This document shows positions 1 to 62,298 of a DNA stretch of 64,000 nt, piece after piece; the first letter of the stretch is position 1, and the number at the start of each line of letters is the position of its first letter. A program made the translations under genes and the position numbers. The notes under the pieces were generated by a model that was not told where the DNA came from, did not search any database, and saw nothing but the letters and a program-made list of their open reading frames with translations. Source of the DNA: a virus; IMG/VR virus record IMGVR_UViG_3300032893_000031, positions 8,552-72,551 of that record. The stretch is one strand, 5' to 3'.

Positions 1-180
1 GAAGCGGTTGCGGAGTTCAATACGCGGCTGGACGAAGCCTGGAATCGCCTTGTTGAATTGAACGGGGGTCCGCCCCCGCCCAGGCGCCAACCGATTGCTG
101 ACTCCGGCCTAACCCGCGACACCGACCCGCACTCGCGGATGGTGTTCAAGGATGAACCGTATCCCGAGATCGTGCCATGA
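1..180 (+). CDS. 3' end of a CDS truncated by the window edge (hypothetical)
   Basis: Frame 1 is open from base 1 to TGA 178-180. The stop overlaps the next start (ATGA at 177-180), the coupling pattern used throughout the window. Confidence 0.4.
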   Translation, partial: EAVAEFNTRLDEAWNRLVELNGGPPPPRRQPIADSGLTRDTDPHSRMVFKDEPYPEIVP

Positions 181-24709: not shown

Positions 24710-24936
24710 GGACGCTCCCCTTTCTGCTCAGCAATCGAAACATCAAACATCCACCCGCGATGTCGCATCAGCTCGTCCATCGTGAGGTCGCGGTCTATCG
24801 CGCCCGGAAAGTAATCGCGCACCGCGTCTGCGATCCGCTTCCTGTCCAAGTCGTATTGCTTCATCAGTTCCGGGGTGACCGGATTGCCCTTGAAAGACTT
24901 CACCCGATAGGTGCGTTGCTCAAAGGCGACGATCAT
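24700..24936 (-). CDS. hypothetical protein, 78 aa
   Basis: ORF 24700-24981 trimmed to ATG 24936 (ATGA overlap). Confidence 0.45.
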   Translation of the reverse strand: MIVAFEQRTYRVKSFKGNPVTPELMKQYDLDRKRIADAVRDYFPGAIDRDLTMDELMRHRGWMFDVSIAEQKGERPCS

Positions 24937-25157: not shown

Positions 25158-25164
25158 AGACCAA

Positions 25165-25184
25165 GCGTTACGCTATTGTAACGC
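25165..25184. promoter_or_regulatory. palindromic operator-like site upstream of the HTH gene
   Basis: GCGTTAC-gctatt-GTAACGC, 8 nt upstream of ATG 25157. On the minus strand it contains TACAAT (25180-25175), a -10-like hexamer. Confidence 0.4.
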
Positions 25185-25211
25185 CTGAGTCAACGGCTTT
25201 TTGAAGATTTT

Positions 25212-25478
25212 TTACGGCCAGGTTTGGCCGAAGGGACGACGGCGGCTGGCCTGAGTGCGGGACTTCGCGCTGCGGGCGGGCTGGCGGGGTGCCTTGCCGT
25301 GAGAGTGGGACATGGGGGCTGGTCCGTGCTTGGCCCCGGCGTGCTGGCTGACGGGGCGGCGCGGCCACGGAAGATTCCAGGCCCCAAACGTTTTCCTGGC
25401 AAGTGTGTCCGCCTGTCGGTCAATGCTTGCTTGGTTTTGCGCGGTGACGGCTCGATCTTTCTCGTTTTGGTCATTCAT
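25212..25478 (-). CDS. hypothetical basic protein, 88 aa
   Basis: ORF track; ATGA overlap with the HNH-AP2 gene stop; Arg/Pro/Ala-rich. Confidence 0.35.
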   Translation of the reverse strand: MNDQNEKDRAVTAQNQASIDRQADTLARKTFGAWNLPWPRRPVSQHAGAKHGPAPMSHSHGKAPRQPARSAKSRTQASRRRPFGQTWP

Positions 25479-25969
25479 ATCAATCCCATTTGCTGATTCG
25501 TTCTGGCAAATTCACCAAAGTAGGCTAATGCCGCTGCGTCATAAGCGCGAGCGGCATCTTTAGGAGATACGAATCTTCCAAGGTAGAACATTCGGTCCCC
25601 TCTGGAAATCTGAGCCTCCCATTTGCCAGACCGGAATCGCACCCCCTTATATCCAGACGCGTTATTTTTGTGCAGGGCCATGTTCCCGTTGTTTTGAACA
25701 TAATCGCAACGCCGGAGGTTGCTCCGCTGATTGTTCAATCCGTTGCCATCCTTATGATCACACCGCTCTCCTCGTTGGAGGCCGAGAATTACACGGTGCA
25801 TGTCTATGTTCCCTACCCTCCTGGGGTTTTCTGGCCCACGTTGTTTGCGGCGGCAGGCGTAGAACGTGTTCCAAGATGGCCTGGCGCACCAGCTCCATTG
25901 GATTAGCCATTCATAATCTTCGTCATCAACTAAGGCGACCAAGCCTCTCGTTAGTGGAATCTCTTTCAT
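25475..25969 (-). CDS. HNH homing endonuclease with AP2 DNA-binding domain
   Basis: 164 aa. The segment DHKDGNGLNNQRSNLR matches HNH_3. The segment SGYKGVRFRSGKWEAQI..YLGRF..AARAYDAAALAYFGEFA matches AP2. Confidence 0.8.
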   Translation of the reverse strand: MKEIPLTRGLVALVDDEDYEWLIQWSWCARPSWNTFYACRRKQRGPENPRRVGNIDMHRVILGLQRGERCDHKDGNGLNNQRSNLRRCDYVQNNGNMALHKNNASGYKGVRFRSGKWEAQISRGDRMFYLGRFVSPKDAARAYDAAALAYFGEFARTNQQMGLI

Positions 25970-26120
25970 TGGGAATAAAGAGCACCCGCCGCCGAGCGTT
26001 CAAACACGCAAGAACTGAAGAAGTCCCCGCCGTTCGGCAACGGATGCTTAAAGGTTGCTGTGTGTCCATCGGGTTTGAATCCGACGCAAGAACACTACGG
26101 CACCAAATGCCAGGAGTCAA

Positions 26121-27461
26121 TCATTCTCCATTGCCAGCAAGGACTTCCTCTGGCTCCGGCACTTCGGTATCGGTGAAATTGATGCCCGTTTCCTCAGCCT
26201 CGTTGATTTCCGCCACTAAATCGCGCACGGCATCCAGCGAGATTTCCACCGGCTGGCCCTTGAGCATGTCCGCGACTTCCATCAGGTGGTCGGCGGCCTC
26301 CTGCACGGTGTTGCCGACGCCGTTGATGGAGCCGATGCAGGCGGTGTGGAAGTGGTTGCGCGGGAAATGCAGGACATCGCCCGCCAGCATGGCCTCGCGA
26401 GGGTTCAGCCACGGCCAGAGCTTGTCCTCCACGCGGATGGAGCGCCAATCGCGGAAGCCATCGGCATGGTCCATCAGGCATTCGATGACAACTTTGCAGG
26501 CGGGTTCGATTTCAATGCTTTCGCCCGCACCGGCGGCGTAAAGGAGTTGCGGAAGATTGCCGTAAGCCTGTAGCTGGCAGGAGCCGGATGGGAACCCCAA
26601 CCGGGTGGTGATGTCGGTAAGGACGTTTTCGGTTTTGGTCTTGCGCTGCTCGGTGCTGAGGAAATTGCTGTAGCGGTATTTGGCGAGCGTCGGCAAGAGC
26701 GGTTCGAGGACCGAAGTGATTTGCGGGTCAAGGTCGGCATACGGACGGATGAACGAGCAGTAGGCTTGGTTCTTTTTTTCGACTCCGATGAGCGCATGGG
26801 ATGGCGCTTGGCCGTTGACGATGAGGAAGTCCCCGCCATCTTCGATGTCGGTCTTGATCTCGTCCTCGACCATGAAATCAATGAGTTCCTTGAACGGCCC
26901 GAATTTCACCGCCAGCTTGTCGAGCAGCCCGTTGTCTTGCTCCCATGACCGCCATTTTCGAGTCTCAAAATCCGCTCTCCAGCGGTCAATCTTCAAGAAC
27001 TTATTCTCCAACGGAGCAAGGTGCTGCGTCAGCCGGGAGATGCCTTTGATCGTGATGTATTCCGGCACGTCCATCCCGAGCTTGGATTGCAGTTTGCGGA
27101 AGCGGCTGCGATAGAGTTCAAGTTCCTGGCCTTCCTTGGAGCCAACAACCCGGTGCCCGAGGGATTCGAGGTAAACCTGTGCGCCGATGTGGCCGGTGTC
27201 GGGGAAGACGAAGAGCGAGATTTCCTCGAACTTGTCTCCCCGGGCCATCCTCAACCAAAAGTCGTTGCAGCGGTGGATTCCAAGATCAGCAAAACCGTCA
27301 CCCCATTGTTCCTCAACGCTCTGATGGTCCTCATCGAAGGGCGTGTGGTAGAGCACGCGGCCAAAGCCGTCGGGATTGATGGCCTGGGACAAGTGGAGGG
27401 CGAGATTGAAGAACAATCCACTGTCCACGATCAAAACCTTCTTGTCGCTCAGTTCGCTCAT
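26121..27461 (-). CDS. ATP-grasp-fold enzyme candidate
   Basis: Trimmed to ATG 27461 (ATGA overlap), 446 aa. The N-terminal KKVLIVDSG Rossmann-like start and overall layout resemble phage ATP-grasp / PurD-like proteins. Not verified. Confidence 0.4.
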   Translation of the reverse strand: MSELSDKKVLIVDSGLFFNLALHLSQAINPDGFGRVLYHTPFDEDHQSVEEQWGDGFADLGIHRCNDFWLRMARGDKFEEISLFVFPDTGHIGAQVYLESLGHRVVGSKEGQELELYRSRFRKLQSKLGMDVPEYITIKGISRLTQHLAPLENKFLKIDRWRADFETRKWRSWEQDNGLLDKLAVKFGPFKELIDFMVEDEIKTDIEDGGDFLIVNGQAPSHALIGVEKKNQAYCSFIRPYADLDPQITSVLEPLLPTLAKYRYSNFLSTEQRKTKTENVLTDITTRLGFPSGSCQLQAYGNLPQLLYAAGAGESIEIEPACKVVIECLMDHADGFRDWRSIRVEDKLWPWLNPREAMLAGDVLHFPRNHFHTACIGSINGVGNTVQEAADHLMEVADMLKGQPVEISLDAVRDLVAEINEAEETGINFTDTEVPEPEEVLAGNGE

Positions 27462-28308: not shown

Positions 28309-30540
28309 TTAGTTTTGGAAAGCCTGCATTCTGTTTTGGCGGCGAATCGTGCTCGCGGTACTGGCGTCCGCAAGAGCCATATTTTGTCGCGTCCTCGCAA
28401 GTTGGGTTTGCAAGTGGACCCTGGCCTTGGCCTGCTTGATCGCAATGTCCGAACGCGCTTTCGCCGCCGCCAATGCCTGATCACTCATCGCCGCCTGCGT
28501 CTTTTGCTGTTGGGCCTGCTGCTGCTTCTGCATTTTGGCCACGGTCTGCCTAAGCTTGTCGGTGAAGCTCGAAACCTTTTTGAGTTGGGCCAACAGAACC
28601 TTGAAGATTTGCTTTCGCATCGGGTCTTGGGCGAACCGGCGCAGGTGCGCCAGCACAGCCGGGCCGGCCAGTTGCAGGAACGCCAACACCTGCATGGGGT
28701 TGCCGCCCTGCTGTAGCGATTGAAGCGCCTGAGTCGCGGCTTGCAGGATGCCCGCCGCAAACTTCACCGGGTTCTGCTCGCTGGTAATCGGCGGGGCCAT
28801 TCCCTGGCGCATCATGCTGATTGCCTGAGCGAGCATCCAATCCTGCTCGTCAGCCATCTTCTTGGCCTGCTTAGACGGGTTGTAGCGTTCGACTGACGCC
28901 GCGCCAGCCGTGGCGGCGATTCGGTCGTTCAGCCAGTTATTCCTGCCTTCTTCTGGCAGGCTGGCGACATCGGGGCGCATGGCCTCCAATGCCTCACGGC
29001 GCAGGAATGGATTGCCCTCGCCAACGACGCGCACGGCGTTGACGGCTTCAATGCGACCAAAGCACTCGCGGGGGACACCTTTCTTCACGCACGCCTCCTG
29101 AAAGGCTTTGGCGCGGGCATGGGTGGAGTTCGGGTTGCACAGCCGCCGGACGATCTCGAAATACAGGACATCAAGCTGCTGGTAATAGCGGTTGATGCCC
29201 GTGCGGTTGAGGGCGCTTTCCTTCGAGGCTTCCAGCATGACCTCCTTGGCGGTCGCCGGATTGCCCGGCATATCCATCCGGGCGGTCTGGCGGTAATTCG
29301 ACAGGTTGGAGCGCATGAGTTCGCTGCTGGTGCGGAACATCGCCAGCCCGTCCTGCATCAGCCCGGCAATCGGATTCTGCACGACATCAGTCCCCGCCGG
29401 AATCTTGCCCCAGTCCCCGAAGGTGGTGAGCGTGAACTTCTCCGAGGATGACGCCGATCCGAACTTGAAGAAAATCTTGGGCGCAAACGCCTTGTCCATC
29501 AGGTTGCACAACAGGCGATTCTCATAGACCATCGCCCCGTACATCTTCACCCCCAGGCCGGTGACGGTGTAGTGCCAGCCGCCGTTGCCGCGGTCAAAAT
29601 ACATCGGATGCACGCATTCGGTGAAGGAGTTGTAACGCTCGAAGTGGAAGAACAGGTACTTGGGCTCGGCATTGGCCATGCCGTCGCGCTGGACAATCGC
29701 GTGTGTGATCTTCCCGCTGAATTCCTTCCAGAACACATGGGCCAGCGGCACGATCTTGCTCTCGTCCACGAAATTGAGGGAATTCTGCTTGTACTGGTCC
29801 TGAAAGAATTCCCGGTCCCACGCGCGGGTGGATGGCTGCTGAATGTCCATCGCGTTGGCGATCACCCGCTGGGTGTAATCAATATCCCAGCCTCGGCTCA
29901 CGGCGGCTTCTTCATCGCGGATGAAGGCATAGACCTCAGGCGGGTAGTAATCCACGTCAATCGAACAAACCTCCCAGCGGCGGACGGTGGCGGGCGTGCG
30001 CTCGGGAACCTTGAGATCGCCGTCGTGAAGGGAGCGTGGGAACGGGTTGTCGTTGTCCTCGAACATGAACGGCCCACGCCCGTGCAGCACCATCTCGTTC
30101 TGGCTTTGCTGCTGCTCGAAGTCCCAATCTAGGGTTGGGTCTTTGAACTGCGCCTCGGCTTCGGCGGACATGATGCGCGACCACGCATCGCGTTCCTCGG
30201 GCTTGCCGTGGCCAGTGCGGATGGACACCACGCCGGGGGCCTCGTGGGCCAGGTCGTAGTAGGCGCCAACGCCGGATTCGACGGTGCTCCGGCCAGTCCC
30301 CCAGTTGACATTGCACGCTTCGGCGCGACCGGCGGCACGCAGGGCCGAATGGCGATAGGGCGGGTTGCCGTCGATCAGGCCGCGGACGGCTGCTCTTTTC
30401 TTGCTGCGCTCAATGTCGTTGGTGGTAAGCCGAATCACGAATTCCTGCACATCGTTCGCCGTGGCAAACCGCGTGGCGGGGACAGACCCAGTACTCGAGA
30501 TTGTGTCTAACGCGCCGGTAGGCTGATTTGGGGCACTCAT
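28309..30540 (-). CDS. portal protein candidate
   Basis: 743 aa, a typical size. The N-terminal RAAVRGLIDGNPPY-type segment and a long Gln/Ala-rich helical C-terminus resemble podovirus portals with a C-terminal barrel. Not verified. Confidence 0.55.
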   Translation of the reverse strand: MSAPNQPTGALDTISSTGSVPATRFATANDVQEFVIRLTTNDIERSKKRAAVRGLIDGNPPYRHSALRAAGRAEACNVNWGTGRSTVESGVGAYYDLAHEAPGVVSIRTGHGKPEERDAWSRIMSAEAEAQFKDPTLDWDFEQQQSQNEMVLHGRGPFMFEDNDNPFPRSLHDGDLKVPERTPATVRRWEVCSIDVDYYPPEVYAFIRDEEAAVSRGWDIDYTQRVIANAMDIQQPSTRAWDREFFQDQYKQNSLNFVDESKIVPLAHVFWKEFSGKITHAIVQRDGMANAEPKYLFFHFERYNSFTECVHPMYFDRGNGGWHYTVTGLGVKMYGAMVYENRLLCNLMDKAFAPKIFFKFGSASSSEKFTLTTFGDWGKIPAGTDVVQNPIAGLMQDGLAMFRTSSELMRSNLSNYRQTARMDMPGNPATAKEVMLEASKESALNRTGINRYYQQLDVLYFEIVRRLCNPNSTHARAKAFQEACVKKGVPRECFGRIEAVNAVRVVGEGNPFLRREALEAMRPDVASLPEEGRNNWLNDRIAATAGAASVERYNPSKQAKKMADEQDWMLAQAISMMRQGMAPPITSEQNPVKFAAGILQAATQALQSLQQGGNPMQVLAFLQLAGPAVLAHLRRFAQDPMRKQIFKVLLAQLKKVSSFTDKLRQTVAKMQKQQQAQQQKTQAAMSDQALAAAKARSDIAIKQAKARVHLQTQLARTRQNMALADASTASTIRRQNRMQAFQN

Positions 30541-47487: not shown

Positions 47488-49293
47488 ATGGCCTCCAAAG
47501 CCCCGCCATTGCCTGAGCCGCTGACCGAAGCCGATTTCTTCGCCTACCGCCACGCCTACGCCAATCGCTTCAAAGGCCCGGTCCCGCGCCTGGAAATGTT
47601 CCGGCGCATCGCCGACACGCTGATGCCCAACTGGTTTGAGTGGCACCCGTGGACCAACCGGATGGTGGAAGCCCTGGGCCGCTACAGGTGGGAGGCATGG
47701 TCAGGGTGTTCGGGAAGCTCTAAAACGTGGAACAGCGCCAATTACGCCTGCTTGTGGTGGCTGATGGCGCCAGAGGAATCCTCCGTTATCTTCTGCTCCA
47801 CGACGATGAAGATGCTGCGGCGCCGCGCCTGGGCGTACATCCAGAAATTCGAGCAGCGGTTCTCCGAGCGCATGGGCATGAAGGTTGGCAACTTTGTGGA
47901 CTCCCGCACCGTCTGGCAATGCCAGCAGGGGGACGACCTGCACGCGATGTTTTGCGTGGCCGTCGGTGAGGGGGATGCCAACAAGATTGCGGCCAACATC
48001 CAGGGCATTCACACCCGCCGGCAGTTGGTGATCATTGACGAGGCCGAGGCGGTGCCCAGCGCGATCTGGAAAGCCTGCGCCAACCTCTACTCCTACCCGA
48101 TCAACGCCGGTGGCGAATTCATCCTTCTGGCCATCGCCAACGCCCGCTCGCGCCTGAGCCAGTTTGGGCGCTTCTGCGAGCCCGCTAACGGCTGGAATTC
48201 CGTCAGCATTGACACCGACGAGTGGGAGACCAAGCCGCAGTTGGACGGCACGCCCGGGCACGTCCTGCGCTTTGACTTCCGCAAGACCCCCAACATCACG
48301 GAGGGCCGCACGGTCTCGCATCACCTGCCGACCAAGCAGCACGTCGAGATGACGCTCAAGGCACTGGCCGCGCGCGGCGCCGAGAATGACCCAGAGCATT
48401 GGGCGTACAACCTGAGCTTCCCCGTCCCGGAGGGCTTTGCCAAAACAGTGTTCACCGAGACGCTGTTCGACAAATACGACGCCTACGGCAAGCTCACCTT
48501 CACCGGCAACCGCTTCATGATCATCGGCACGCTCGATCCCGCCTACACCGGCGACCGCCCGGCCCTGCGATTCGGGGCCTTCGGGGAAATCGAAACTGGC
48601 AAGATGGGCATTGAATCCATGCCGCCCATCGTCCTCTACACCGACACCACCAGCAAAGACCCGATTCGCTACCAACTTGTTCGGCAGGTGCGCCAGCATT
48701 GCGCCAACGTCATGTGGCGCGGCCAGAAATACGAGTGCAAGCCGGAGAATTTCGGGTTTGATGCCTCGGGCGACGGCGGGATCTGCGATATTGCCATCCA
48801 GGAATGGAGCCCGGAGATCATCAAAATCCAGTACGGGGGTTCTGCCAGCGACGAGCCGTGCTCGCATGAGGACCGGCGCCCCGCCAGCGAGGTCTATAAA
48901 AACAAGCGGGCGGAAATGTATTACCGCACCCGCAGCGCCATCGAGTCCAGCCAGATGAAGGGCTTGGATAAGGACACGGCCGCCGAGCTTTCCACCCTCG
49001 AGTACTCGGACACCCGGCCTGATGGCAGCATCAAGCCGATCACGCTGATGGACAAGAAGGAGTATCGGGTGAAGTTCAACAAGTCGCCGGACTTGGCTGA
49101 CTGCTTCGTCCAACTCATCGAGGTCGCGCGCCTGCGCGGGTTCTCCCTCACCGCCCGCGGCAACACCATCCAAACGCTGGTCGAGGCGGACAAGGAGGCG
49201 CAAGTCGCCCAGGCCGTTTACGAAACCGCCGACACCGCCGCACCATCGGAAATCATCGAGGGCGTCGAGGACATGGTGGAGGAGGTCTGGTGA
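47488..49293 (+). CDS. terL: terminase large subunit
   Basis: 601 aa. Walker A-like GCSGSSKT and Walker B LVIIDEAE, with a C-terminal nuclease-sized half. The 500-aa antisense ORF is a shadow frame. Confidence 0.75.
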   Translation: MASKAPPLPEPLTEADFFAYRHAYANRFKGPVPRLEMFRRIADTLMPNWFEWHPWTNRMVEALGRYRWEAWSGCSGSSKTWNSANYACLWWLMAPEESSVIFCSTTMKMLRRRAWAYIQKFEQRFSERMGMKVGNFVDSRTVWQCQQGDDLHAMFCVAVGEGDANKIAANIQGIHTRRQLVIIDEAEAVPSAIWKACANLYSYPINAGGEFILLAIANARSRLSQFGRFCEPANGWNSVSIDTDEWETKPQLDGTPGHVLRFDFRKTPNITEGRTVSHHLPTKQHVEMTLKALAARGAENDPEHWAYNLSFPVPEGFAKTVFTETLFDKYDAYGKLTFTGNRFMIIGTLDPAYTGDRPALRFGAFGEIETGKMGIESMPPIVLYTDTTSKDPIRYQLVRQVRQHCANVMWRGQKYECKPENFGFDASGDGGICDIAIQEWSPEIIKIQYGGSASDEPCSHEDRRPASEVYKNKRAEMYYRTRSAIESSQMKGLDKDTAAELSTLEYSDTRPDGSIKPITLMDKKEYRVKFNKSPDLADCFVQLIEVARLRGFSLTARGNTIQTLVEADKEAQVAQAVYETADTAAPSEIIEGVEDMVEEVW

Positions 49294-49916
49294 AACTCAT
49301 CGTTCGCTCGCCGGGCCAACTTCCATACGGCGGAAAATATTCACTGAACCTCCCCGAGCTTGGCATCGTCGGCTGGGGCCAGAATTACTTCGATCTCAAG
49401 GAACGCGTGGAAGCCTGGCGCCACGCCAACGGCTGGCCTGTCGGGCTGGGCTTTGACGAGGAATTGCAGGCGGCGGTCTGCCGCGATTACCCCGCCGAAT
49501 GCACCATCGAACTGCCGCCCGCCCTTCCCGCCCCGCAGAAAATCGGCTGGGGGGACGTGATGCGCGGGACGGTGATGATGGCCAAGAACAAGCTCGCGGG
49601 CTCGCCCACGGTCTCCGACGAGGAAGCCAACCGCCGGGCCGAAATCTGCGCGCGGTGCATCCTGCGATCCGATTACACCAGCCCGTGCCCACTGTGCAAA
49701 GACCTGGAGAATTTGGCGGTCTCAATGGTGGGGGCACGCACCACCAAGTTTGACGGCCGCCTGCAACGCAAGGCGTGCGCGATATGTCATTGCTTCCTCG
49801 GTGCCAGCGTGTGGGTTGATCTCGATCTCCAATGGTCCGTCCTGTCCGACGAGCAGAAGGAACAGTTCTGGGTGGCCCATCGGGAGATCGGCTGCTGGAA
49901 GTGCCCCACCACCTAA
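49290..49916 (+). CDS. Cys-rich hypothetical protein, 208 aa
   Basis: GTGA overlap with terL. Several CxxC pairs (CARC, CPLC, CAIC, CWKC). Confidence 0.5.
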   Translation: MKLIVRSPGQLPYGGKYSLNLPELGIVGWGQNYFDLKERVEAWRHANGWPVGLGFDEELQAAVCRDYPAECTIELPPALPAPQKIGWGDVMRGTVMMAKNKLAGSPTVSDEEANRRAEICARCILRSDYTSPCPLCKDLENLAVSMVGARTTKFDGRLQRKACAICHCFLGASVWVDLDLQWSVLSDEQKEQFWVAHREIGCWKCPTT

Positions 49917-49938: not shown

Positions 49939-49966
49939 TTGACAGGGGATTGGCTTGGTGTAGGCT
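49939..49966 (+). promoter_or_regulatory. sigma70-like promoter candidate (near-leaderless)
   Basis: TTGACA (49939-49944), 16 nt, TAGGCT (49961-49966), then TTTTTT and ATG 49973. Preceded by a hairpin at 49917-49940. Confidence 0.25.
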
Positions 49967-49972
49967 TTTTTC

Positions 49973-50794
49973 ATGAACGAACCAATCCACATCATCAGCC
50001 TCGGCGCTGGCGTGCAGAGCAGCACAATGGCCCTGATGGCTGCCGCTGGCGAGATAACGCCGATGCCGGTTGCGGCGATATTCGCGGATACCCAGGCTGA
50101 ACCAAAGTCCGTTTACACGTGGCTGGACTGGCTGGAAAAGCAGTTGCCGTTTCCGGTGCGCCGAGTGACGGCGGGCAGCTTGGTTGATGACGCCTTGAGG
50201 ATTCGTGAGCGCAAAGACAAAACCGGATTCTGGTCTCCGTCTGCGATTCCCCACTACTCAATCAACGCCGATGGCAGTGACGGTCACGGGCCGCGCCAAT
50301 GCACTCACGATTTCAAACTGCTTCCACTGGGCCGCGAGACGCGCAAGGTCCTGTTGGAACACGGCGCAAAAGAATGCGTCACATGGATTGGAATTTCTAT
50401 TGATGAAGCTGCCCGAATGAAAGAAAGCCGTGTGCGGCATATCGTTCACCGGTGGCCGCTGGTTGATCTCTGCATCAAACGTTCGGATTGTCTTGCGTGG
50501 ATGGCTGAGCGCGGGTTCCCCAAGCCTCCGAGAAGCGCGTGTGTGTTCTGCCCCTACCACTCAGACCGTGAGTGGCGGCGACTAAAAACCGAGGAGCCGG
50601 CCGAGTTTGACTATGCTGTGAAGTTTGAGCGGGATTATCAAGCGGTGAAAAAGACAACACTGTGCGACAAGAACGTTCAATTTTTCCTTCACTCGAAACG
50701 CGTTCCTCTAGACCAAGTGGACTTTTCCACCGAAGAAGAGCGCGGCCAACTCAACATGTTCAATAACGAGTGCGAGGGGATGTGTGGGGTATGA
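49973..50794 (+). CDS. phosphoadenosine phosphosulfate (PAPS) reductase family / PP-loop protein
   Basis: 273 aa. N-terminal ISLGAGVQSS is PP-loop-like. The C-terminal Cys cluster (CVFCPY ... CEGMCGV) is typical of phage PAPS-reductase-family proteins. Confidence 0.65.
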   Translation: MNEPIHIISLGAGVQSSTMALMAAAGEITPMPVAAIFADTQAEPKSVYTWLDWLEKQLPFPVRRVTAGSLVDDALRIRERKDKTGFWSPSAIPHYSINADGSDGHGPRQCTHDFKLLPLGRETRKVLLEHGAKECVTWIGISIDEAARMKESRVRHIVHRWPLVDLCIKRSDCLAWMAERGFPKPPRSACVFCPYHSDREWRRLKTEEPAEFDYAVKFERDYQAVKKTTLCDKNVQFFLHSKRVPLDQVDFSTEEERGQLNMFNNECEGMCGV

Positions 50795-51453
50795 CAAAAG
50801 CACATTCCTACCTCCGGGTCTCCGGCAAGGGCCAGGTTGACGGTGACGGCTTTCCCCGCCAGCGCGCGGTTATCGAAGCCTACTGCCAGGCCCACAACAT
50901 CATTATCGAGCGCGAGTTCGTGGAGCAGGGCGTATCGGGCACCCTCGATGCCTTCGACCGGCCGGCCCTCACCGACCTGATGGTGGCGATCAAGGCCAAC
51001 GGGGTGCGCCTGGTGCTGGTCGAACGCGCCGACCGGCTGGCCCGCGACCTGATGATCTCCGAGATCCTGCTCTCGGAGTTCCGCAAGCTGGGCGTGAAGG
51101 TGATTGCCGCCGACAGCGACACCGACTTGAGCGTGGAGGACAAAGACCCCACCCGCACGCTCGTCCGCCAGATGTTGGGCGCCATCGCGCAGTTCGAGAA
51201 ATCCTGCATCGTGCAGAAGCTCCGCGCCGCCCGCGCGCGCGCGCGCCGGGACAACGGGCGGTGCGAGGGGAGAAAGCCTTACGGGAGCAAGCCCGGGGAG
51301 CATGGGGTGTTTGATTACATGAAAGAACTGCGCGCGGAAGGCAAGTCGTTCAAAGCCATCGCCCAAATCCTGAACGAGAAGAACATCCCCACCCGCGTTC
51401 GAGACGCGGCGTGGCACCCGACTACGCTGGCCAGGATTTTGGGGAGGGGTTAG
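50791..51453 (+). CDS. small serine recombinase (resolvase/invertase family)
   Basis: Trimmed to ATG 50791 (ATGA overlap). YLRVSGKGQ carries the catalytic Ser. VLVERADRLARD is present. C-terminal HTH-like segment GKSFKAIAQILNEKNIPT. Confidence 0.75.
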   Translation: MTKAHSYLRVSGKGQVDGDGFPRQRAVIEAYCQAHNIIIEREFVEQGVSGTLDAFDRPALTDLMVAIKANGVRLVLVERADRLARDLMISEILLSEFRKLGVKVIAADSDTDLSVEDKDPTRTLVRQMLGAIAQFEKSCIVQKLRAARARARRDNGRCEGRKPYGSKPGEHGVFDYMKELRAEGKSFKAIAQILNEKNIPTRVRDAAWHPTTLARILGRG

Positions 51454-52190
51454 CCGTCCCGCTGGCAAACTTCGATCACAGCCGATCCTTCTTTCAGTAT
51501 CACGCGGATAAGGTCCGGCGGATTGGCGTTGGTGCGCTCGAAACCCACGTTCTTGCCGATGGTCTTGCGGATCACCCACCGGCCAATGATCGATACGTTG
51601 GCTGGCGGCGGCGCTGGCATGTGCATTTTTTCTTCCCCATTTGAGGAGGCAAAAGTGCGTACGGTCTTGGATTTCTGCCCCAGCGCCTGCCACTCTGCAT
51701 TCCCCTCACCATGCTTGGGAATCCACAGGCGCGCCTGTTCCTCCACCGACCGCACCGACCGCTCGCCCAACGCGCGTTTCAGTTCCAGCCGGCTCATCTC
51801 GCGCACCGTCTTTTTCGAGACGACAGGCTTGCCGTTGGCTACCCGAACCACGACATCAATCGGCTGGCTGCACAGCCGCGCCTGTTCGTCGTAGGGGTAT
51901 CCCATAAGCCGGCGGACCGGCATCGCCGGGGAGATCAAAAGCTGCGGATGAAGCTGTTTTCTGCCGATTCGCTCGATGGTTTCGAGCATGTCCACCGTCA
52001 GCAGCGGCTCGCGCTGGATAATCTTGCGGTACACCCCAGGATCGTCCTTGCGCATTTCCACCAACAACCCGCCCGCGGCCTGCCAGCATTTAATGCCCTC
52101 GCGGAGCATTATCAGGAAGGTCTCGACGGCTTCGGCTCCGAGTTTGACCAGGGCGTTAACGGTTTTGGCTGGCAAGTTGGCTGGTTGCAT
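51450..52190 (-). CDS. hypothetical protein, 246 aa
   Basis: ORF 51450-52250 trimmed to ATG 52190. Convergent with the recombinase gene, with a 4-nt overlap. Confidence 0.45.
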   Translation of the reverse strand: MQPANLPAKTVNALVKLGAEAVETFLIMLREGIKCWQAAGGLLVEMRKDDPGVYRKIIQREPLLTVDMLETIERIGRKQLHPQLLISPAMPVRRLMGYPYDEQARLCSQPIDVVVRVANGKPVVSKKTVREMSRLELKRALGERSVRSVEEQARLWIPKHGEGNAEWQALGQKSKTVRTFASSNGEEKMHMPAPPPANVSIIGRWVIRKTIGKNVGFERTNANPPDLIRVILKEGSAVIEVCQRDG

Positions 52191-52548
52191 AAAACATTCT
52201 GAATGCTCTGCGGGATCGGAAGGCTTGAATCTCGGCCCGCTTTCGTTCAATGGTTTCGGGCGTGATCGGGCGCCCTTGTTGTCTGAGTTGCTGCACGGCG
52301 TAATGATTGGGAATCCTCGACACCCGGCGCTTCTGATAGCGGATAACCCTCTCCAGGTTTCGCGCCTTCCATCTGTAGGTGTACTCAGCCCAGTATCGGC
52401 CCCTGTGCGGGTCTCTGGGATGCTTGCGCCGCCAGCGCCGGCTGCTGTAACGGCGGATCACCCGAATTCTCGCCTTGAGTTCCAGCGGGCTGAACACGCT
52501 CTCAAGCCTGCCGTTGTCAGGATTGCGTTGAGTAGTGGCGGGGTTCAC
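52156..52548 (-). CDS. hypothetical highly basic protein, ~130 aa
   Basis: ORF 52156-52647. GTG 52548 gives a GTGA overlap with the Lar-like stop; ATG 52572 is an alternative. Hand-counted third-position GC is about 68%. Arg-rich. Confidence 0.45.
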   Translation of the reverse strand: MNPATTQRNPDNGRLESVFSPLELKARIRVIRRYSSRRWRRKHPRDPHRGRYWAEYTYRWKARNLERVIRYQKRRVSRIPNHYAVQQLRQQGRPITPETIERKRAEIQAFRSRRAFRMFYATSQLASQNR

Positions 52549-52799
52549 GAACAATCCGGCTGTTTCTGCCATTTGACGATGGCAAACCTTCGGGATTGCG
52601 CAATCGGCCCCTCGGCGTTGCAGTGCATACAGTGAACCCAAAAGCAAAACTCCACGTCGTCATCGCCGCGTACCGTCAGGTCCGCACTGCCGCAGAATGG
52701 GCAGGGAAGCATGGATTGCCCTTCGGTTTCAAACTCAGTCGGGGCGTTTGCTTTATCCCGGTTGCGCTCAGCGATTAACTCAAGGGTGAGCTGACTCAT
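52545..52799 (-). CDS. Lar-family restriction-alleviation-like protein
   Basis: 84 aa. CPFCGSADLTV ... VHCMHCNAEGP ... AIVKWQ matches the Lar zinc-ribbon pattern. Confidence 0.6.
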   Translation of the reverse strand: MSQLTLELIAERNRDKANAPTEFETEGQSMLPCPFCGSADLTVRGDDDVEFCFWVHCMHCNAEGPIAQSRRFAIVKWQKQPDCS

Positions 52800-52813
52800 A
52801 CTCTGGAATCCGA

Positions 52814-53539
52814 TTAGACTCCGATCTGATTCTCTCTACCAAGCAAATCCGGCGCGCCCAACTCCTTGCGCTCCATCACCGATACCAGCGTCCAGCCGCG
52901 CCATTGGTGTCCGGCCTTGCCGTCTGTGCGCTGGAGGTTGTTGAAGCCCCCGACCGCCCGCTGCCAGAGCGCCAGCTTGGACATCGGGCGCTCATCCGGC
53001 AGGAATCGGTGTTCGTTGGCCCGGCACCACGATTGCAGGTTGTCGAATTCGTGAATGACACCCCGCGGATCCCGGATGATCCAGTGAAGCGCCTTGTGAT
53101 GGTCGGGCCGGTCTCTGGCGTCTCGCCCAAACCCATGCGTGCCCGTCAGGGCCTTTGCGATGGACTGCCGGCGTCTGGCTTCGGCTTCCGGCGGCAGGTC
53201 TGTCGGCCGCAGTAGTCCTTTTAAGGATGCCAGACGATGTTCTTCAGAGAGTTTTCGCCCGGTGAGCGCCTTCGAGATGGCCGCGCGCGTTTCTTCCGGC
53301 ACGGGCCGCCCACGCCGTGGCGCGCACCGTTTCTCCACCAACTCGCGGGTCTGGTGGCGCATGGTTGAAAACTTGGATTCATCCTTCCAGGCAGACTTCA
53401 AGCCGCGCGACTGGTTCTGCGACCATTCGGGCGAGTGCTTCTTGCCGCGGAACTGGTGCCCGCGCACGTATCGCCGAGGACGCCCATGGTTGTCGGGTCC
53501 AAGTTCCGTCTGACAGCCGCAGAGGCATAGGGTTTTCAC
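52814..53539 (-). CDS. NUMOD3-motif DNA-binding protein (homing-endonuclease-related, no nuclease domain recognised)
   Basis: 241 aa from GTG 53539. EETRAAISKALTGRKLSEEH and RRRQSIAKALTGTHG are NUMOD3-like repeats. Confidence 0.5.
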   Translation of the reverse strand: MKTLCLCGCQTELGPDNHGRPRRYVRGHQFRGKKHSPEWSQNQSRGLKSAWKDESKFSTMRHQTRELVEKRCAPRRGRPVPEETRAAISKALTGRKLSEEHRLASLKGLLRPTDLPPEAEARRRQSIAKALTGTHGFGRDARDRPDHHKALHWIIRDPRGVIHEFDNLQSWCRANEHRFLPDERPMSKLALWQRAVGGFNNLQRTDGKAGHQWRGWTLVSVMERKELGAPDLLGRENQIGV

Positions 53540-53711
53540 ACCCCAACTGTGCCACGCCGTTACAGCATTGCAACCCGAAAGTTGTTGCCAACCCCCGCCC
53601 GGTGGGCTTATGGGTTGGGCAATGATGGATTGCGAGTCCAGTTGTCATACAGGATTTCGGACCCGGCAGGCAACCCGGAGCCCGGAAGTTGACGGCACCA
53701 AAACGTCTTCT

Positions 53712-53749
53712 GCCCCCATTGCTCGCAACGGTGGGGGCTTTTCTTTTCT
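53712..53749 (+). terminator. intrinsic terminator-like hairpin plus U-tract
   Basis: GCCCCCA (53712-53718) pairs with TGGGGGC (53732-53738), followed by TTTTCTTTTCT. The minus-strand reading lacks a U-tract. Confidence 0.45.
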
Positions 53750-54529
53750 ATGAGCCGCGGCGGCGCCATCGGAACACCCTGCACGCTCCACCGAGTTCCG
53801 GCAAAGTGGTTCCGACCCCGCCCCCGTGACAAATACCGCGCCAAGCTTATGCGCCGGCAGATCGCCAGAGATGCCCTCCCCGGCAACTCCCAATACATCA
53901 TTTTCTCGAAGTCCACGCCCGATAACCGCATTCTCGCGCAGCCGCCGATGGTAATCGACGGACACCAGATACCTCCCTCTGGTCCGGGCCTGACCGCCCG
54001 GGCTCCACTCGTAGCGTCAAACGAGAGTAGGCCCCAACGTGGTGTTGGCCAGCCGAACAGTCCAGCGCGAGACGCGACTGCGGTGTTTCCGACCGGGACA
54101 GCCCAGCCCTGTTTGGCCAACGGCAGCACGTAAAGGCCAGTCGCCCGGCAGGCATTACCGCCCCCGGCAGGCTCTGAGGCAACCGCCAGCAGTTGGACGA
54201 TCTCCAACCGGCGCCGCAGACCCATTTGGACTTCCTGTGCCTAGACAAAACCAGCCCAATCCATACTCAACTTCAACTCGGTTCCAGTCTCAGGTTTGGT
54301 GAATCGCCAACCCGGAAACTTCCCAAAAACCCAGGATTTCAAAAGGCACCCCTTGCGCTCGACGCGGGTGCCGAAAGGGGGCCGCCGGGGTCCTCGTCCG
54401 GGTCCTGGGCCGCGAAAAGAATTCTTACCGCCGGCCAGGCGCCGGGAGCCACCGTCGCGGCCGGCTCGTGACAGGATGGCTCAGCCCGGAAGTGTGACAC
54501 GCACGATTTCTGTAGAAATGGTGTGCGGT

Positions 54530-55090
54530 TTAGTCCTGCCCCTCGCGGATGGGCGGAACCTGGATCGGCTCGGGCGCGGGGGCTGGCGGTGGAAGCTGCG
54601 CTGGTGCTGGGGCCGGCGTGACCACGGCTTGGATCGGGCGGGCGAACATCCCGGCAGACCATGCGCCCGCGGGTGCGAGTTGCTGCGGAGGCTTCGTCGG
54701 GCCGGGATCGGAGATGCCGAGCAGCTTGCGCTGACGGTCGAGGAGCACGTCCAGGGACTTCAGGAGCTGCGCGCGGTGATGGGGCTCAAGCGCCGTCCGG
54801 CCGCAGTGGGGGCAGGTGCCGGCGTCATCCGATAAAACGGCGCGGGTGCGTGCTATCTGCTCCTTCACGAGCCTCATTTGCACTCGGATTGCGGTTTCTG
54901 CCGTTGTTGGGGAATCTGGCGTCTGCGCTTCCCGTGCGGCTTTGCGCAGTTCGGCTTTAAGCCGGCGGCTTTTGACGGAGGCGAGGCCGCCAAGCTTCGA
55001 GAACTGGTGTCCGGGTTGGAAGGGGCGGCCGCGCGGTTTGGGCTTTGGGGCGGCTGGTGGGGCTGGCGCCGGGGTTGCGGCAGTGACCAT
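54530..55090 (-). CDS. DUF5681-like basic protein (possible DNA-binding / small-terminase-like)
   Basis: 186 aa. KPRGRPFQPGHQFSKLGG resembles the GRPf.kGqSGNP motif of DUF5681 phage proteins. Pro/Ala-rich ends. Confidence 0.4.
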   Translation of the reverse strand: MVTAATPAPAPPAAPKPKPRGRPFQPGHQFSKLGGLASVKSRRLKAELRKAAREAQTPDSPTTAETAIRVQMRLVKEQIARTRAVLSDDAGTCPHCGRTALEPHHRAQLLKSLDVLLDRQRKLLGISDPGPTKPPQQLAPAGAWSAGMFARPIQAVVTPAPAPAQLPPPAPAPEPIQVPPIREGQD

Positions 55091-55097
55091 GCCTCAC

Positions 55098-55165
55098 GTT
55101 GACTCTCGCCGCGGTTGCCGTCAAGCCCTGATTTTGTGTCAACCTGGTTGCCGGTGGAGGTTGAC
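55098..55165. promoter_or_regulatory. operator-like inverted repeats in the divergent control region
   Basis: First pair: GTTGAC (55098-55103), 16 nt, GTCAAG (55120-55125). Second pair: GTCAAC (55138-55143), 16 nt, GTTGAC (55160-55165). Each spacer contains GGTTGCCG. Confidence 0.4.
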
Positions 55166-55299
55166 GGTTACAAAGCAGCAACGATGCCAATCGGGCCGGA
55201 GAGCGTGAAATAAATCCTGATGAAAAGAGCGAAAGTTGTTGCAATGCTGTAACGGCTGGCCGATGCTCTACTTGTGATTCGGCATATTGAAACAGTTTT

Positions 55300-55369
55300 C
55301 CCCGCGGCTGGCGCCTCTCTGGCGCGTGTTGCGCCGGCCGAATCACACGCTGGCCGCGGGGATTTTTCT
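55300..55369 (+). terminator. Y-shaped GC-rich hairpin plus U-tract (leader terminator/attenuator candidate)
   Basis: CCCCGCGGCTGGCG (55300-55313) pairs with CGCTGGCCGCGGGG (55348-55361), with two G-U pairs and an inner GGCGC/GCGCC hairpin. Followed by ATTTTTCT, 12 nt before ATG 55382. Confidence 0.35.
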
Positions 55370-55381
55370 ACAGGATCGACG

Positions 55382-55555
55382 ATGAAAAACGACAAGCATA
55401 TAGGCGGTTCAGTGGTTCGGAAGAATGCGACCCACAAAGGCATGTGGGACATTATGGAAACCAGGGCTGGAATGCTCACCGGCAAGGCCAGCTTCACCGG
55501 CACCATGAAAGAAGTTCGGGCTGCTATCCGTCTCGGAAATCGGCTGGCTCGCTAA
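55382..55555 (+). CDS. hypothetical protein, 57 aa
   Basis: ORF 55274-55555 trimmed to ATG 55382. The upstream part has low third-position GC and contains the hairpin. GTG 55274 is an alternative start. Confidence 0.4.
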   Translation: MKNDKHIGGSVVRKNATHKGMWDIMETRAGMLTGKASFTGTMKEVRAAIRLGNRLAR

Positions 55556-57743: not shown

Positions 57744-58004
57744 ATGAGCAACCACAATGGAGAAACCCCAGCCTTTCCCCAGCCAATGGCCGCCATGCCG
57801 GACGGCACGATGTATGTGACTGCCGAAAAGCATTGCGACTGGGCCGGCCTATCGAAGCGCGAGGAGTTCGCCAAGGCGGCGCTAATCGGCATCCTGGCCG
57901 GCAGGTCCGAGGACTTTTCAGAAGTGCTTTGCGCCAAGTCCGCCATCGAGTGCGCCGACGCGCTTCTGGCCGCGCTGGCCCAACACCCCAACAATCAGGG
58001 TTGA
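57744..58004 (+). CDS. hypothetical phage protein, 86 aa
   Basis: GLSKREEFAKAALIGILAG is a pattern frequent in small phage proteins. Confidence 0.5.
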   Translation: MSNHNGETPAFPQPMAAMPDGTMYVTAEKHCDWAGLSKREEFAKAALIGILAGRSEDFSEVLCAKSAIECADALLAALAQHPNNQG

Positions 58005-58131
58005 CATGCTCCCGCGATGGAATAGGTTGGCGGTGCGATGCAGTTTGACGGAAAAATCTCCTCGCTCCTTGGCGCAATTTGGGCGCAAAGCCCGAACTGC
58101 ATCGCAGCCTTGGGGCGAGGTTTTTTCGTTT

Positions 58132-58671
58132 ATGCCGGACTCGAAAACCCAAAGCGCCTATAAGCGGTACCTGCGTTCTGCCCATTGGAAAAAGCTGCGT
58201 TCTGAAAAACTAAAGGCTTGCGGCGAGCGGTGCAATCGCTGCGGTTCTGCGGAGGAGATAAACGTCCACCATCTGCGCTATCGGCTATGGTTTGACTGCA
58301 CCCAAGACGATTTAGAAGTCCTATGCCATGAGTGCCATGCGGCAGAGCATGGACGAAGAACGCCACGCCCGAAGAAGCGGGCCGGGTTGAAACTGGCCAT
58401 AGCCTACGCGGACTCCGCGCCGCCCAATCGGTTTATGAATAAGCCGCTTAGTCGGCTGCTGAATGGCTGTCTGTTTCTTCAACGGTTCAACGGTCGGCGC
58501 CCGTTCTATTTGAGCGTAAGGGCGGCGGGCAAGATCGCGGGACTCGATAACCCATTTCATGCCGCCGCCTATCTCCGAGAGCTGCAGCGGATCAAGTGGC
58601 TGACGCTTATCCGAAAAGGCGCATCCGAGGGCAGACAGGCCAGCGTATGGAAGATCCAAAAACCACAATGA
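58132..58671 (+). CDS. HNH-motif protein
   Basis: ORF 58006-58671 trimmed to ATG 58132. CNRCGS..INVHHLRY....DLEVLCHECHAAEH is an HNH (CxxC..HH..CxxCH) signature. Confidence 0.6.
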   Translation: MPDSKTQSAYKRYLRSAHWKKLRSEKLKACGERCNRCGSAEEINVHHLRYRLWFDCTQDDLEVLCHECHAAEHGRRTPRPKKRAGLKLAIAYADSAPPNRFMNKPLSRLLNGCLFLQRFNGRRPFYLSVRAAGKIAGLDNPFHAAAYLRELQRIKWLTLIRKGASEGRQASVWKIQKPQ

Positions 58672-61130: not shown

Positions 61131-61217
61131 CTTCCGCCGCCCCGTTCGCGCCTAGTGCGTGCCCCTCGATGTGCGGGGGGCAACACCGATCCTGTCGGGC
61201 GGGGCGGCGATTCTCTC

Positions 61218-61247
61218 TGGAAATGAACCGGAAATGAGTTGGAAATG
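61218..61247 (+). repeat. three direct GGAAATGA repeats at 11-bp spacing (iteron-like)
   Basis: GGAAATGA occurs at 61218-61225, 61229-61236 and 61240-61247, about 200 nt upstream of the replication-organiser gene. Confidence 0.5.
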
Positions 61248-61299
61248 AACCCAAAACCAATTCCCCTTTGACATGCCCGTGAGTCGCCCAAAAAATATG

Positions 61300-61328
61300 T
61301 TGACGGGGTGGGGTGAAGGCCCTATGGT
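61300..61328 (+). promoter_or_regulatory. sigma70-like promoter candidate
   Basis: TTGACG (61300-61305), 17 nt, TATGGT (61323-61328). A second TTGACA lies at 61268-61273. Confidence 0.4.
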
Positions 61329-61336
61329 GGGGGCGT

Positions 61337-61429
61337 GAAGTTGCATCGTAGAAAATCCAATGCTGCCGCCGGTTGCCGTTCCCGCCTGGGATGCGACTTC
61401 ACAAGGCTGGCGGTAGCATTGGCTTTTTT
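61337..61429 (+). ncRNA. structured leader / short terminated transcript candidate (interleaved stems plus U-tract)
   Basis: Stem A: 61337-61347 pairs with 61390-61400 (11 bp, one G-U). Stem B: 61357-61370 pairs with 61409-61422 (14 bp, one G-U), followed by TTTTTT 61424-61429. GTG 61441 follows. Confidence 0.35.
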
Positions 61430-61440
61430 AAGGCAACCTT

Positions 61441-62298
61441 GTGAATGGCTACGCCAAAGTATTTGCATCCCTTTTCGACGGCTCACTCCGGGGCCAGTCC
61501 GATGAAATCCTAGTTTTCGTTTACCTGCTCTGCAACGCCACGGCCACCGGCGCCTCGGAGGTCCATCGGGATAAGATTTCAGACGACACCGGCCTTAGCC
61601 GCGCCCGGGTGAACCGCGCCATATCCGCCCTGGAGGCAGCGGACCCGGAATCCAGAACCCCCGACGAAGAAGGCCGAAGGATCGTGCCTCTGGATGGCCG
61701 CGGATGGGGTTGGAGGATAGTTAACCATAAGAAATACAGGGAGTTATGCGGGGATGGTAGGTATGCGGCGCTGGCTGCTAAAAGAATGCAAAAACTCAGG
61801 GAGAAGCAGTCCGTTACGCAACGTTACGCAACAGACGTAACGGTTGCGCAACAACATGCTTCTGCCTCTGCTTCTGCATCTGTAACGGAAGGGGGAGTGG
61901 GGGAAACCCGTTGGGCGGAAATACCAGACTGGTTGACGTTCTGGGAATATTGCCGCCAGATTGGCCTTGGCGCCGAATGGTGGGCCAAGGACAAGTTCCT
62001 TGCAGCCTGCCAAGGGAATTGGGAGAAGCAAAGGAACTGGAAGGCGTATGTCACCAGGATAAAGGTCTGGTGGGAGGAGGCTGGCAGGCCATTTAATCCT
62101 CCGAAGCCCAAAGGGTTCGAGCGCCAAGAGCCGTCACCCAAACCCGTCAACCGCGAGGTCTTTGAGTGCGCGGGCTATAAGTGGGACAGGAACGGTCCAG
62201 GCCCGCAAGCCTCAGACTTCCCGCGCTCGCGCTCGCCCCAAGCCGATGCGGATTGCTTCCGAGCCGAATGGGACAAATGGCTAAAGGCCACAGCATAA
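61441..62298 (+). CDS. replication organiser / replication-initiation-like protein (N-terminal winged helix)
   Basis: 285 aa from GTG 61441. FASLFDGSLRG..ILVFVYLLCNA..ISDDTGLSRARVNRAISALEAAD resembles phage replisome-organiser N-termini. Located next to the DnaB-type helicase. Confidence 0.5.
   Translation: MNGYAKVFASLFDGSLRGQSDEILVFVYLLCNATATGASEVHRDKISDDTGLSRARVNRAISALEAADPESRTPDEEGRRIVPLDGRGWGWRIVNHKKYRELCGDGRYAALAAKRMQKLREKQSVTQRYATDVTVAQQHASASASASVTEGGVGETRWAEIPDWLTFWEYCRQIGLGAEWWAKDKFLAACQGNWEKQRNWKAYVTRIKVWWEEAGRPFNPPKPKGFERQEPSPKPVNREVFECAGYKWDRNGPGPQASDFPRSRSPQADADCFRAEWDKWLKATA

Follow-up and report, generated by a model that had tools for sequence, protein, structure and literature searches.

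A probably non-coding 990-nucleotide interval of an uncultured phage carries a DNA element conserved downstream of a small CxxC...HH protein gene

The stretch analysed here (the window; 64,000 nucleotides [nt], positions 8,552 to 72,551 of the IMG/VR virus record IMGVR_UViG_3300032893_000031) contains a 990-nt interval, 53540-54529, that lies between two open reading frames (ORFs) on the minus strand, 52814-53539 and 54530-55090. A first-pass annotation, made from the letters alone, had singled out this interval (the gap) as lacking a convincing gene, and our analysis bore this out. Because multiple negative coding tests agree, we judge the gap to be probably non-coding. Furthermore, a segment of about 160 bases within it matches a DNA element that recurs 3' of the same uncharacterised gene, the 186-amino-acid (aa) ORF at 54530-55090, in eight or more further uncultured, phage-like contigs. 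The features of this element argue that it is recognised as DNA rather than as RNA, and we rate the chances as about even that the whole interval forms a composite, non-coding control region that would act at the DNA level. In the public annotation of the source contig (ENA ERZ27256510 k141_1486713, metagenomic, 74.4 kilobases [kb]; window coordinate = contig coordinate minus 4577), a 205-aa ORF on the minus strand is called as a gene, and the gap is therefore not visible there.

The three ORFs that had been named within the gap are all present: minus 53608-54225, which corresponds to the 205-aa ORF, and plus 53750-54133 and 54193-54471. It could be supposed that one or more of them encodes a fast-evolving orphan (ORFan) protein. 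In favour of this, the frames are uninterrupted, the 205-aa ORF was accepted by a gene caller, stop trinucleotides show a mild depletion, and the AT skew, which is positive across 53750-54350, favours the plus strand as sense over that segment; in addition, the plus-strand frames give a weak positive codon signal of 0.08 and 0.04 bits per codon. However, a full HMMER search of nine reading-frame segments of the gap against 1.84 billion protein representatives yielded a single match, the window's own 205-aa ORF, which forms a singleton cluster among these representatives. The search thus recovered no conserved protein covering the region, and neither Pfam nor PHROGs contained a match for the gap frames. 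The longest open frame, of 210 codons, lies within the range of dinucleotide shuffles (mean 178 ± 43, P = 0.20), and the best codon log-odds score in the gap, 7.3 bits for a 97-codon frame on the plus strand, equals the 95th percentile of the shuffle null, compared with 11-30 bits for neighbouring small genes. The period-3 signal-to-noise ratio is 0.5-1.6 across 53425-54594 versus 2-4 in both flanking genes. When modelled by AlphaFold2 without an alignment, the 205-aa ORF reached a mean predicted local distance difference test score (pLDDT) of 31, and a 127-aa ORF reached 57 with one helix only. The 205-aa ORF passes through the hairpin of an intrinsic terminator, and the plus-strand ORF begins directly 3' of this terminator without a promoter-like site. 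Finally, the equivalent tracts of related loci, described below, share no similarity at the peptide level and contain only obviously spurious calls, such as a Trp-rich 193-aa ORF in one locus (L017, 708-1289), which translates to WFWGFWWFWWW and looks spurious. The public gene call of the 205-aa ORF is probably spurious too. We consider an ORFan in the gap quite unlikely, and the small-protein cassette proposed by the first-pass annotation gained no positive evidence from homology, codon score, periodicity, pLDDT or the comparison of tract peptides. The description of the genome as otherwise gap-free did not hold either, since the codon-usage measure is low in 36% of the 300-nt windows across the 64 kb, and the gap is the longest low-scoring stretch rather than a unique one.

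The gap had also been described as structured, and a large structured noncoding RNA (ncRNA) had been put forward to explain it. A transcript of this kind, or a small RNA ending at the plus-strand intrinsic terminator 53712-53749, would give this terminator something to terminate. The terminator itself is real; its hairpin (53712-53738) plus TTTTCTTTTC is the best-scoring terminator-like site in 45-64 kb. The whole-gap fold has a z score of −1.96 on the plus strand (20 shuffles) and −0.91 on the minus strand, and the single 200-nt window 53700-53899, which contains the terminator, reached −3.3. Nevertheless, the 200-nt windows mostly gave z scores of 0 to −1.9, with most local values between 0 and −1, and most of the hairpins cited by the first-pass annotation fold no better than dinucleotide shuffles. 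Two of the cited regions (53550-53640 and 54335-54475) showed z scores of −0.4 to −1.1, as expected for DNA with 62% guanine plus cytosine (GC), and only 53745-53845 stood out (z = −2.3). A search of Rfam returned no match at the gathering threshold in the whole window and none in seven related loci; the segment 53300-54800 gave only chance-level expectation (E) values of 3-8, and for the gap itself Rfam was empty even at E ≤ 10. RNAalifold found no consensus pair among nine sense or eight antisense homologous segments, which represent the conserved part of about 190 nt only, and a structure kept by compensatory changes was thus not detected on either strand. In addition, there is no promoter-like site on the plus strand upstream of the terminator. 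An RNA product of the gap, large and structured or small, therefore appears very unlikely.

The gene that adjoins the conserved part of the gap belongs to an uncharacterised phage family. A search with the single 186-aa protein retrieved 22 homologues with 43-63% identity, and the family alignment revealed an invariant C-x2-C-x7-HH-RAQLL core (C93, C96, H104 and H105) followed by a Leu/Arg-rich helix. The product is probably a DNA-binding protein of the zinc-knuckle type. Pfam contained nothing at E ≤ 1 for the protein and nothing at E ≤ 0.01 for the 22 family members, a result that includes PF18932, so that the label 'DUF5681-like' that the gene had received was not borne out; no relative was found in the PDB. 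We compared the genomic context of ten homologues. Wherever enough upstream context was available, the family gene is the first of a short unit and diverges from a run of small early genes, which in L015 includes a Phage_P22_Y8K6 gene, as it does in the window.

On the 3' side of the gene, a long tract with no, tiny or implausible ORF calls was found in L015 (about 390 nt), L016 (about 420 nt), L012 (550 nt or more), L008 (about 675 nt), L010 (about 740 nt), L017 (about 730-950 nt) and L014 (590-1300 nt). Since comparable tracts follow the homologues, the 1-kb gap of the window represents a recurrent architecture and not a one-off. The conserved element begins about 100 nt past the stop codon of the 186-aa gene and comprises four blocks, A to D. 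A profile hidden Markov model (HMM) of blocks A-D, built from the relatives only, matched the minus strand of the window best at 54274-54430 (E = 1.5e-4, against 0.47 for the runner-up), and an HMM of blocks A-B from the eight relatives placed its best match over the whole window and both strands at 54407-54429, again on the minus strand (E = 0.05; next 2.2). Pairwise blastn of the window against single relatives exceeded the shuffle null only marginally, and the evidence for the element therefore rests on the profiles and on its position.

Block A has the consensus TAAG(C/G)A(A)T(T/G)CT(C)TTT and holds a dyad of 10-12 base pairs (bp). The dyad is the perfect palindrome AAGAATTCTT in the window, AAGCATGCTT in L012 and L014, AAGCATTCTT in L015-L017 and AAGGAATCTCTT in L008, L010 and L013. 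Block B, GACCGTC, lies 15-25 nt beyond block A. Block C is a G/C run, which in the window (GGGTGCCGAAAGGGGGCCGCCGGGGTCCTCGTCCGGG) is capable by sequence of forming a G-quadruplex (G4). On the sense strand of the 186-aa gene, it is rich in C in six loci and in G in L010 and L017, with a mixture in L016; the segments of L010 and L013 are essentially reverse complements of each other. In 7 of the 9 loci, a G4-type motif lies no more than 75 nt from block A, on either strand, against a background of 1-47% in shuffles of the same segments and 0.4% in 75-nt windows across the whole window. Block D is an A/T-tract box (TTTTTGGGAAnTTT..GGTT), which as a profile of its own was not significant in the window (third-best match, E = 6.2).

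Several of these features argue that the element is recognised at the level of DNA. A comparison of AAGAATTCTT with AAGCATGCTT revealed a symmetric double change that leaves both sequences perfect palindromes, so that the DNA dyad is kept; at 10 bp the dyad is too short to be an RNA hairpin. Given a dyad maintained by symmetric changes, a G/C-run block that occurs in both orientations and the lack of a common RNA structure, DNA-level recognition appears the better reading. A Rho-utilisation site was considered for the C-rich block and rejected because of the G-rich sense strand of L010 and L017 and the mixed composition in L016. Similarly, a promoter for an extracytoplasmic-function sigma factor or sigma-54 was rejected for blocks A and B, whose spacing varies (17 versus 21 nt) or misfits. 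Among the explanations first offered for the gap was a packaging or replication cis-region; the conserved motifs downstream of the same gene family in other phages favour its cis-acting part, which might serve packaging, replication or the control of transcription. We speculate that the palindrome, the GACCGTC box and the strand-switchable, G4-capable block constitute a previously undescribed cis element that is recognised by the adjacent CxxC...HH protein. In a clade of high-GC, uncultured phages with leaderless mRNAs, it would control a key step such as the start of replication, packaging or a switch from early to late functions, a tentative proposal that is on balance doubtful. In any case, the family gene is followed in about nine diverged contigs by 0.4-1.3 kb of non-coding DNA that begins with the same motifs, and this provides a concrete pair of a gene and its candidate target. 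It is also unusual that block C is kept in position and not in strand, which points to a DNA structure or to orientation-free recognition. In L012 (5001-5969 and 8040-10677), the family gene directly follows an IS240-like DDE transposase ORF. Some 1.5 kb lacking convincing genes come after it, with redox genes of cellular appearance beyond, and the locus may represent a prophage border beside the conserved element.

The gap and the 186-aa gene are jointly bracketed by a perfect 19-nt inverted repeat, X, whose copies X_A (GCCGTTACAGCATTGCAAC, 53556-53574) and X_B (GTTGCAATGCTGTAACGGC, 55238-55256) flank 1663 nt. No longer perfect repeat was detected in the window, and a search that allowed up to three mismatches found the 19-mer at these two sites only (0.02 expected); apart from X, the gap shows no paralogy with the rest of the window. 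A 13-nt direct repeat accompanies X, and deleting 53590-55242 would recreate a perfect hairpin whose stem measures 19 bp. As X_A, X_B and the direct repeat form a palindrome that is split by the module, the 1.65-kb module consisting of the gap, the 186-aa gene and its promoter region looks like a cassette inserted into the palindrome or exchanged at it. A serine recombinase gene lies 2 kb from the X pair, and target sites of the enzyme were not identified; the additional 13-nt repeat fits an insertion better than an inversion by a serine invertase of the hix/gix type. In 596 gigabases of genomes, the 19-mer of X had 4 matches, which equals the chance expectation, and in all but one of them the similarity went no further. 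The one is an intergenic segment of an uncultured Prevotellaceae (L006, 7259-7290; 33 nt), which is 94% identical to 55231-55263, the 19-mer included; it thus exceeds the 19-mer itself, comes from an unrelated organism and is probably due to chance.

Both copies of X are promoter-like (Table 1) and conform to a pattern that recurs in the window. The pattern TTGMMN-16/18-NANNNT-3..9-start codon was found 12 times versus 1.9 times in shuffles, and it marks the starts of the 186-aa gene (TTGACG-17-CAACGT-5-ATG, 55124-55096), of a 273-aa gene at 49973 and of an HNH gene at 58033. The same promoter architecture is present upstream of the family gene in seven relatives. Pairs of −35/−10-like sequences were located 3-9 nt ahead of the start codon at 49939-49973, 55124-55090, 58001-58033 and 25193-25157. 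So short a distance between the −10 sequence and the start codon implies that leaderless mRNAs are made in this phage group, and this would fit the lack of a consistent Shine-Dalgarno motif at confident gene starts. The promoter-to-start spacing could help gene calling in such genomes. An X-like dyad, GTTACGCTATTGTAAC, with one mismatch to GTTRCA-N4-TGYAAC, occurs at 25167-25182 within a promoter-like site, and a third dyad lies at 55167-55182. The former falls within 24811-26280, a second long stretch of low coding potential. On the other side of X_B, a very stable plus-strand hairpin (55299-55370; z = −3.85, −43.8 kcal/mol) with an outer stem of 15 bp and TTTTTCT on its 3' side lies 43 nt downstream of the promoter-like sequence and within the 5' end of the ORF 55274-55555; it could attenuate or terminate transcription where the early operon begins.

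The split palindrome and the 13-nt repeat resemble an insertion scar, and the gap adjoins a gene related to homing endonucleases, both of which would suit an intron associated with that gene or the decayed remains of its mobile element. The relationship of this neighbour was upheld (NUMOD3 E = 7e-4, below Pfam's cutoff; PHROG homing endonuclease E = 2.5e-6), and no catalytic domain was detected in its product. However, models of group I and group II introns had no match at E ≤ 10, the flanking ORFs are complete and unrelated rather than halves of one split gene, and the ends of the module carry no terminal inverted repeats. Moreover, the NUMOD3 gene lies outside the repeat-bracketed module, and the conserved part of the gap goes with the 186-aa gene, to which it is tied in eight loci that have no NUMOD3 neighbour. 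We thus consider this origin of the gap, which the first-pass annotation had listed, extremely unlikely.

A closer look at what follows the tract in the relatives bears on a further alternative, namely that the CxxC...HH protein binds the conserved element, and possibly the remaining tract too, as a replication origin or packaging (pac/cos) site. In L015, L016, L017, L008 and L010, the next real gene after the tract encodes a conserved protein, and in two loci a gene for an HNH endonuclease comes after it. The homologues of these genes in the window, 61441-62298 (with weak winged-helix matches) and 58006-58671, both belong to the early block on the plus strand, and the winged-helix gene sits 7 kb from the gap. 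The distal tract of the relatives contains CCCCCTGTACCCCCT and short TCTGT(A) tandem repeats just ahead of the winged-helix gene; both are absent from the gap of the window, which has no tandem repeats at all. As the tract of the relatives runs into the winged-helix gene and the window's copy of this gene lies 7 kb off, the remainder of the gap is probably a remnant of a module rearrangement, which would have separated two halves of an ancestral tract and left the 186-aa-linked half in place. A change of gene order is also evident elsewhere. In L001 and L002, two distant relatives, a homologue of the window's 743-aa gene directly follows the gene for the terminase large subunit on the same strand (together with a 208-aa gene in L001), whereas in the window the two are 17 kb apart on opposite strands (28309-30540 versus 47488-49916), which points to a large-scale rearrangement of modules.

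A long non-coding tract next to the gene of a probable DNA-binding protein, with a dyad, an A/T tract and G-run blocks in either orientation, would suit an origin or packaging site, as would a tract leading into a winged-helix gene preceded by TCTGTA-type tandem repeats. The PHROG matches of the relatives' HNH gene include a family named terminase small subunit, and the L013 contig ends 94 nt past the gene, inside the element. On the other hand, the remaining contigs do not end at the element, and the gene for the terminase large subunit is 5 kb away on the other strand. The gap has a GC content of 0.59-0.65 throughout and lacks the combination of iterons and an A/T-rich unwinding element typical of replication origins; its only candidate for an iteron is a 10-mer, CCCGGCAGGC, that occurs three times. 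This 10-mer is what the first-pass annotation had reported as a threefold repeat of CCGGCAGGC, and there are exactly three copies, all in the gap and all on the plus strand, with no other exact copy in the 64 kb. The winged-helix gene of the window, by contrast, has three 11-nt iterons and promoters of its own at 61219-61330, far from the gap, and since the iterons and promoters sit there, the origin is more plausibly located at that site. The 310-nt intergenic region 61131-61440, which also holds two sigma-70-like sites (61268-61296 and 61300-61328) and G-runs, would be a better candidate for an origin or operator than the gap. An origin or packaging site within the gap is in our opinion unlikely.

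The conserved motifs, the repeats, the terminator and, by multiple negative tests, the non-coding status are findings, whereas all functions assigned here are inferred. From these features, we derive a composite control region of four pieces, listed in the direction of the minus strand, on which both flanking genes are encoded. The element of about 160 nt would serve as a protein-binding and transcription-boundary zone for the short unit of the 186-aa gene. Within it, a hairpin at 54341-54372 followed by UUUU may represent a weak terminator-like site for the transcript of this gene; it fails the scanner rule of 5 T in 8 bases and is not kept in all relatives. Next comes a lineage-specific spacer of about 500-600 nt, probably left over from the module rearrangement. 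The third piece, the plus-strand terminator, would stop antisense transcription, and the fourth, the promoter-like X_A, would restart transcription to produce a leaderless mRNA for the NUMOD3-Lar genes. X_A is an exact 19-nt duplicate of X_B, the presumed early promoter. Taken alone, this would be an ordinary result, a large intergenic control region of a phage plus one probably spurious public gene call.

Several observations weigh against this composite control region. With 16.6 bits, the window matches the conserved element only modestly, and the column layout of the relatives-only HMMs was taken from an alignment that included the window row. The comparative data are confined to the conserved part, outside the lineage-specific 500-600 nt. 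Codon usage is a weak discriminator of coding sequence here, being low in 36% of the 300-nt windows, and an ORFan of odd composition is therefore still conceivable; the depletion of stop trinucleotides (31 versus 40.8 ± 5.0) points the same way. RNAalifold was run on a gappy MAFFT alignment of 9 sequences and could have missed a structure. The promoter pattern was derived from a handful of sites, and its background is 0.73 per kb per strand. Lastly, the terminator lacks a promoter-like partner on the plus strand within the gap, and the proposed arrangement does not explain the three copies of CCCGGCAGGC.

The gap is situated in a short minus-strand block, 51450-55090, between two plus-strand blocks, and the serine recombinase gene is convergent with this block. 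The GC content of the phage is about 60% and rises to 0.66-0.70 across 54350-55100. With the flanking proteins, the terminase large subunit and the family alignment as queries, we found no close relatives of the phage in IMG/VR, GTDB genomes or metagenome contigs; the metagenome contigs provided just two distant, short loci of the terminase large subunit, which do not extend to the gap. A blastn search of phage GenBank with the gap gave no match. ARAGORN detected no transfer RNA (tRNA) or transfer-messenger RNA in the window or in 8 loci, and the idea of a phage attachment site in a tRNA gene was dropped for this reason. The features discussed are compiled in Table 1.

Table 1. Location of the features in and around the gap (window coordinates)
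Feature	Position	Strand	Basis or remark
Terminase large subunit gene	47488-49293	+	phrog_2, 3e-16
Small serine recombinase gene	50770-51453	+	Resolvase domain, 5e-27; DNA invertases and resolvases are nearest among solved structures
NUMOD3-motif protein gene	52814-53539	-	Homing-endonuclease-related DNA-binding repeats
X_A	53546-53574	-	TTGCAA-16-CACAGT-6-GTG(53539); promoter-like, putative leaderless transcript of the NUMOD3 gene
13-nt direct repeat CGAAAGTTGTTGC	53577-53589 and 55230-55242 (copy 2 overlaps X_B)	+	Sequence
Copies of CCCGGCAGGC	53662-53671, 54144-54153, 54163-54172	+	Exact match
Strong intrinsic terminator	53712-53749	+	10-bp stem with 7 GC pairs (53712-53738), then T-run TTTTCTTTTCT
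Lineage-specific non-coding spacer	53750-54273		No detectable similarity; carries two of the three copies of CCCGGCAGGC
Conserved non-coding element, blocks A-D	54274-54430	-	Relatives-only profile HMMs; motifs in 9/9 loci
Weak terminator-like hairpin GGCACCC...GGGTGCC, then UUUU	54341-54372	-	Sequence and fold
Block C, G-run GGGTGCCGAAAGGGGGCCGCCGGGGTCCTCGTCCGGG	54366-54402	+	G-quadruplex-capable by sequence; C-rich on the sense strand of the 186-aa gene
Block A palindrome AAGAATTCTT	54417-54426		Perfect; T-run follows on the minus strand
186-aa gene, uncharacterised phage family	54530-55090	-	22 homologues, alignment
X_B with copy 2 of the 13-nt repeat	55230-55267	+	TTGCAA-17-GATGCT-6-GTG(55274); promoter-like, rightward early genes
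Early/replication block	from ~55.3 kb	+	DUF7447, HNH, C5 methylase, DnaB
Three 11-nt repeats GGAAATGAACC/GGAAATGAGTT/GGAAATGAACC	61219-61251		In the 310-nt intergenic region 61131-61440, before the winged-helix gene

The arrangement can be compared with several known systems. In phage lambda, non-coding DNA of several hundred nt lies beyond the gene for Q, a small zinc-binding regulator, and contains the DNA target of Q as well as a promoter and terminators (PR'/qut/6S RNA/tR'). The window likewise has a small gene of the zinc-binding type followed by long non-coding DNA, a resemblance that is architectural only; unlike in lambda, a pair of promoter and terminator was not found on the sense strand of the gap. 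Iteron-type origins adjoin initiator genes in plasmids and phages, and the tract of the relatives ends in a comparable way, with short tandem repeats just upstream of the winged-helix gene. In the window, however, the iterons and the winged-helix gene are both found away from the gap, which retains just the portion tied to the 186-aa gene. The morons of lambdoid phages, described in the Hendrix/Juhala literature, are reportedly extra genes inserted between two others together with a promoter and a terminator of their own. The 186-aa gene is similar in that it has its own promoter-like site, lies between the copies of an otherwise continuous palindrome and coincides with a higher GC content, but about 1 kb of its module is non-coding, and the gene and its 3' element are conserved in position in the relatives, which suggests that the gene is not a recent add-on.

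In T4-type phages, repeated cassettes of a promoter and a terminator, termed promoter-early stem-loops (PeSLs), border accessory modules and serve as points of exchange and indels (PMC2839356; PMC4122927). The window resembles this arrangement in that an exact, promoter-like 19-nt repeat brackets a 1.65-kb module, and stem-loops with T-runs lie nearby (53712-53749 and 55299-55370). A promoter-like sequence is repeated at the module borders, as in PeSLs: the 19-mer occurs twice (0.02 expected), each time in the form TTGCAA-16/17-NANNNT-6-GTG. X differs from PeSLs in having only two copies, which are inverted, and in belonging to an unrelated, high-GC phage with putative promoters of the leaderless type; similarity in sequence is not to be expected. 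By analogy of arrangement, X would be the closest counterpart of PeSLs in this phage.

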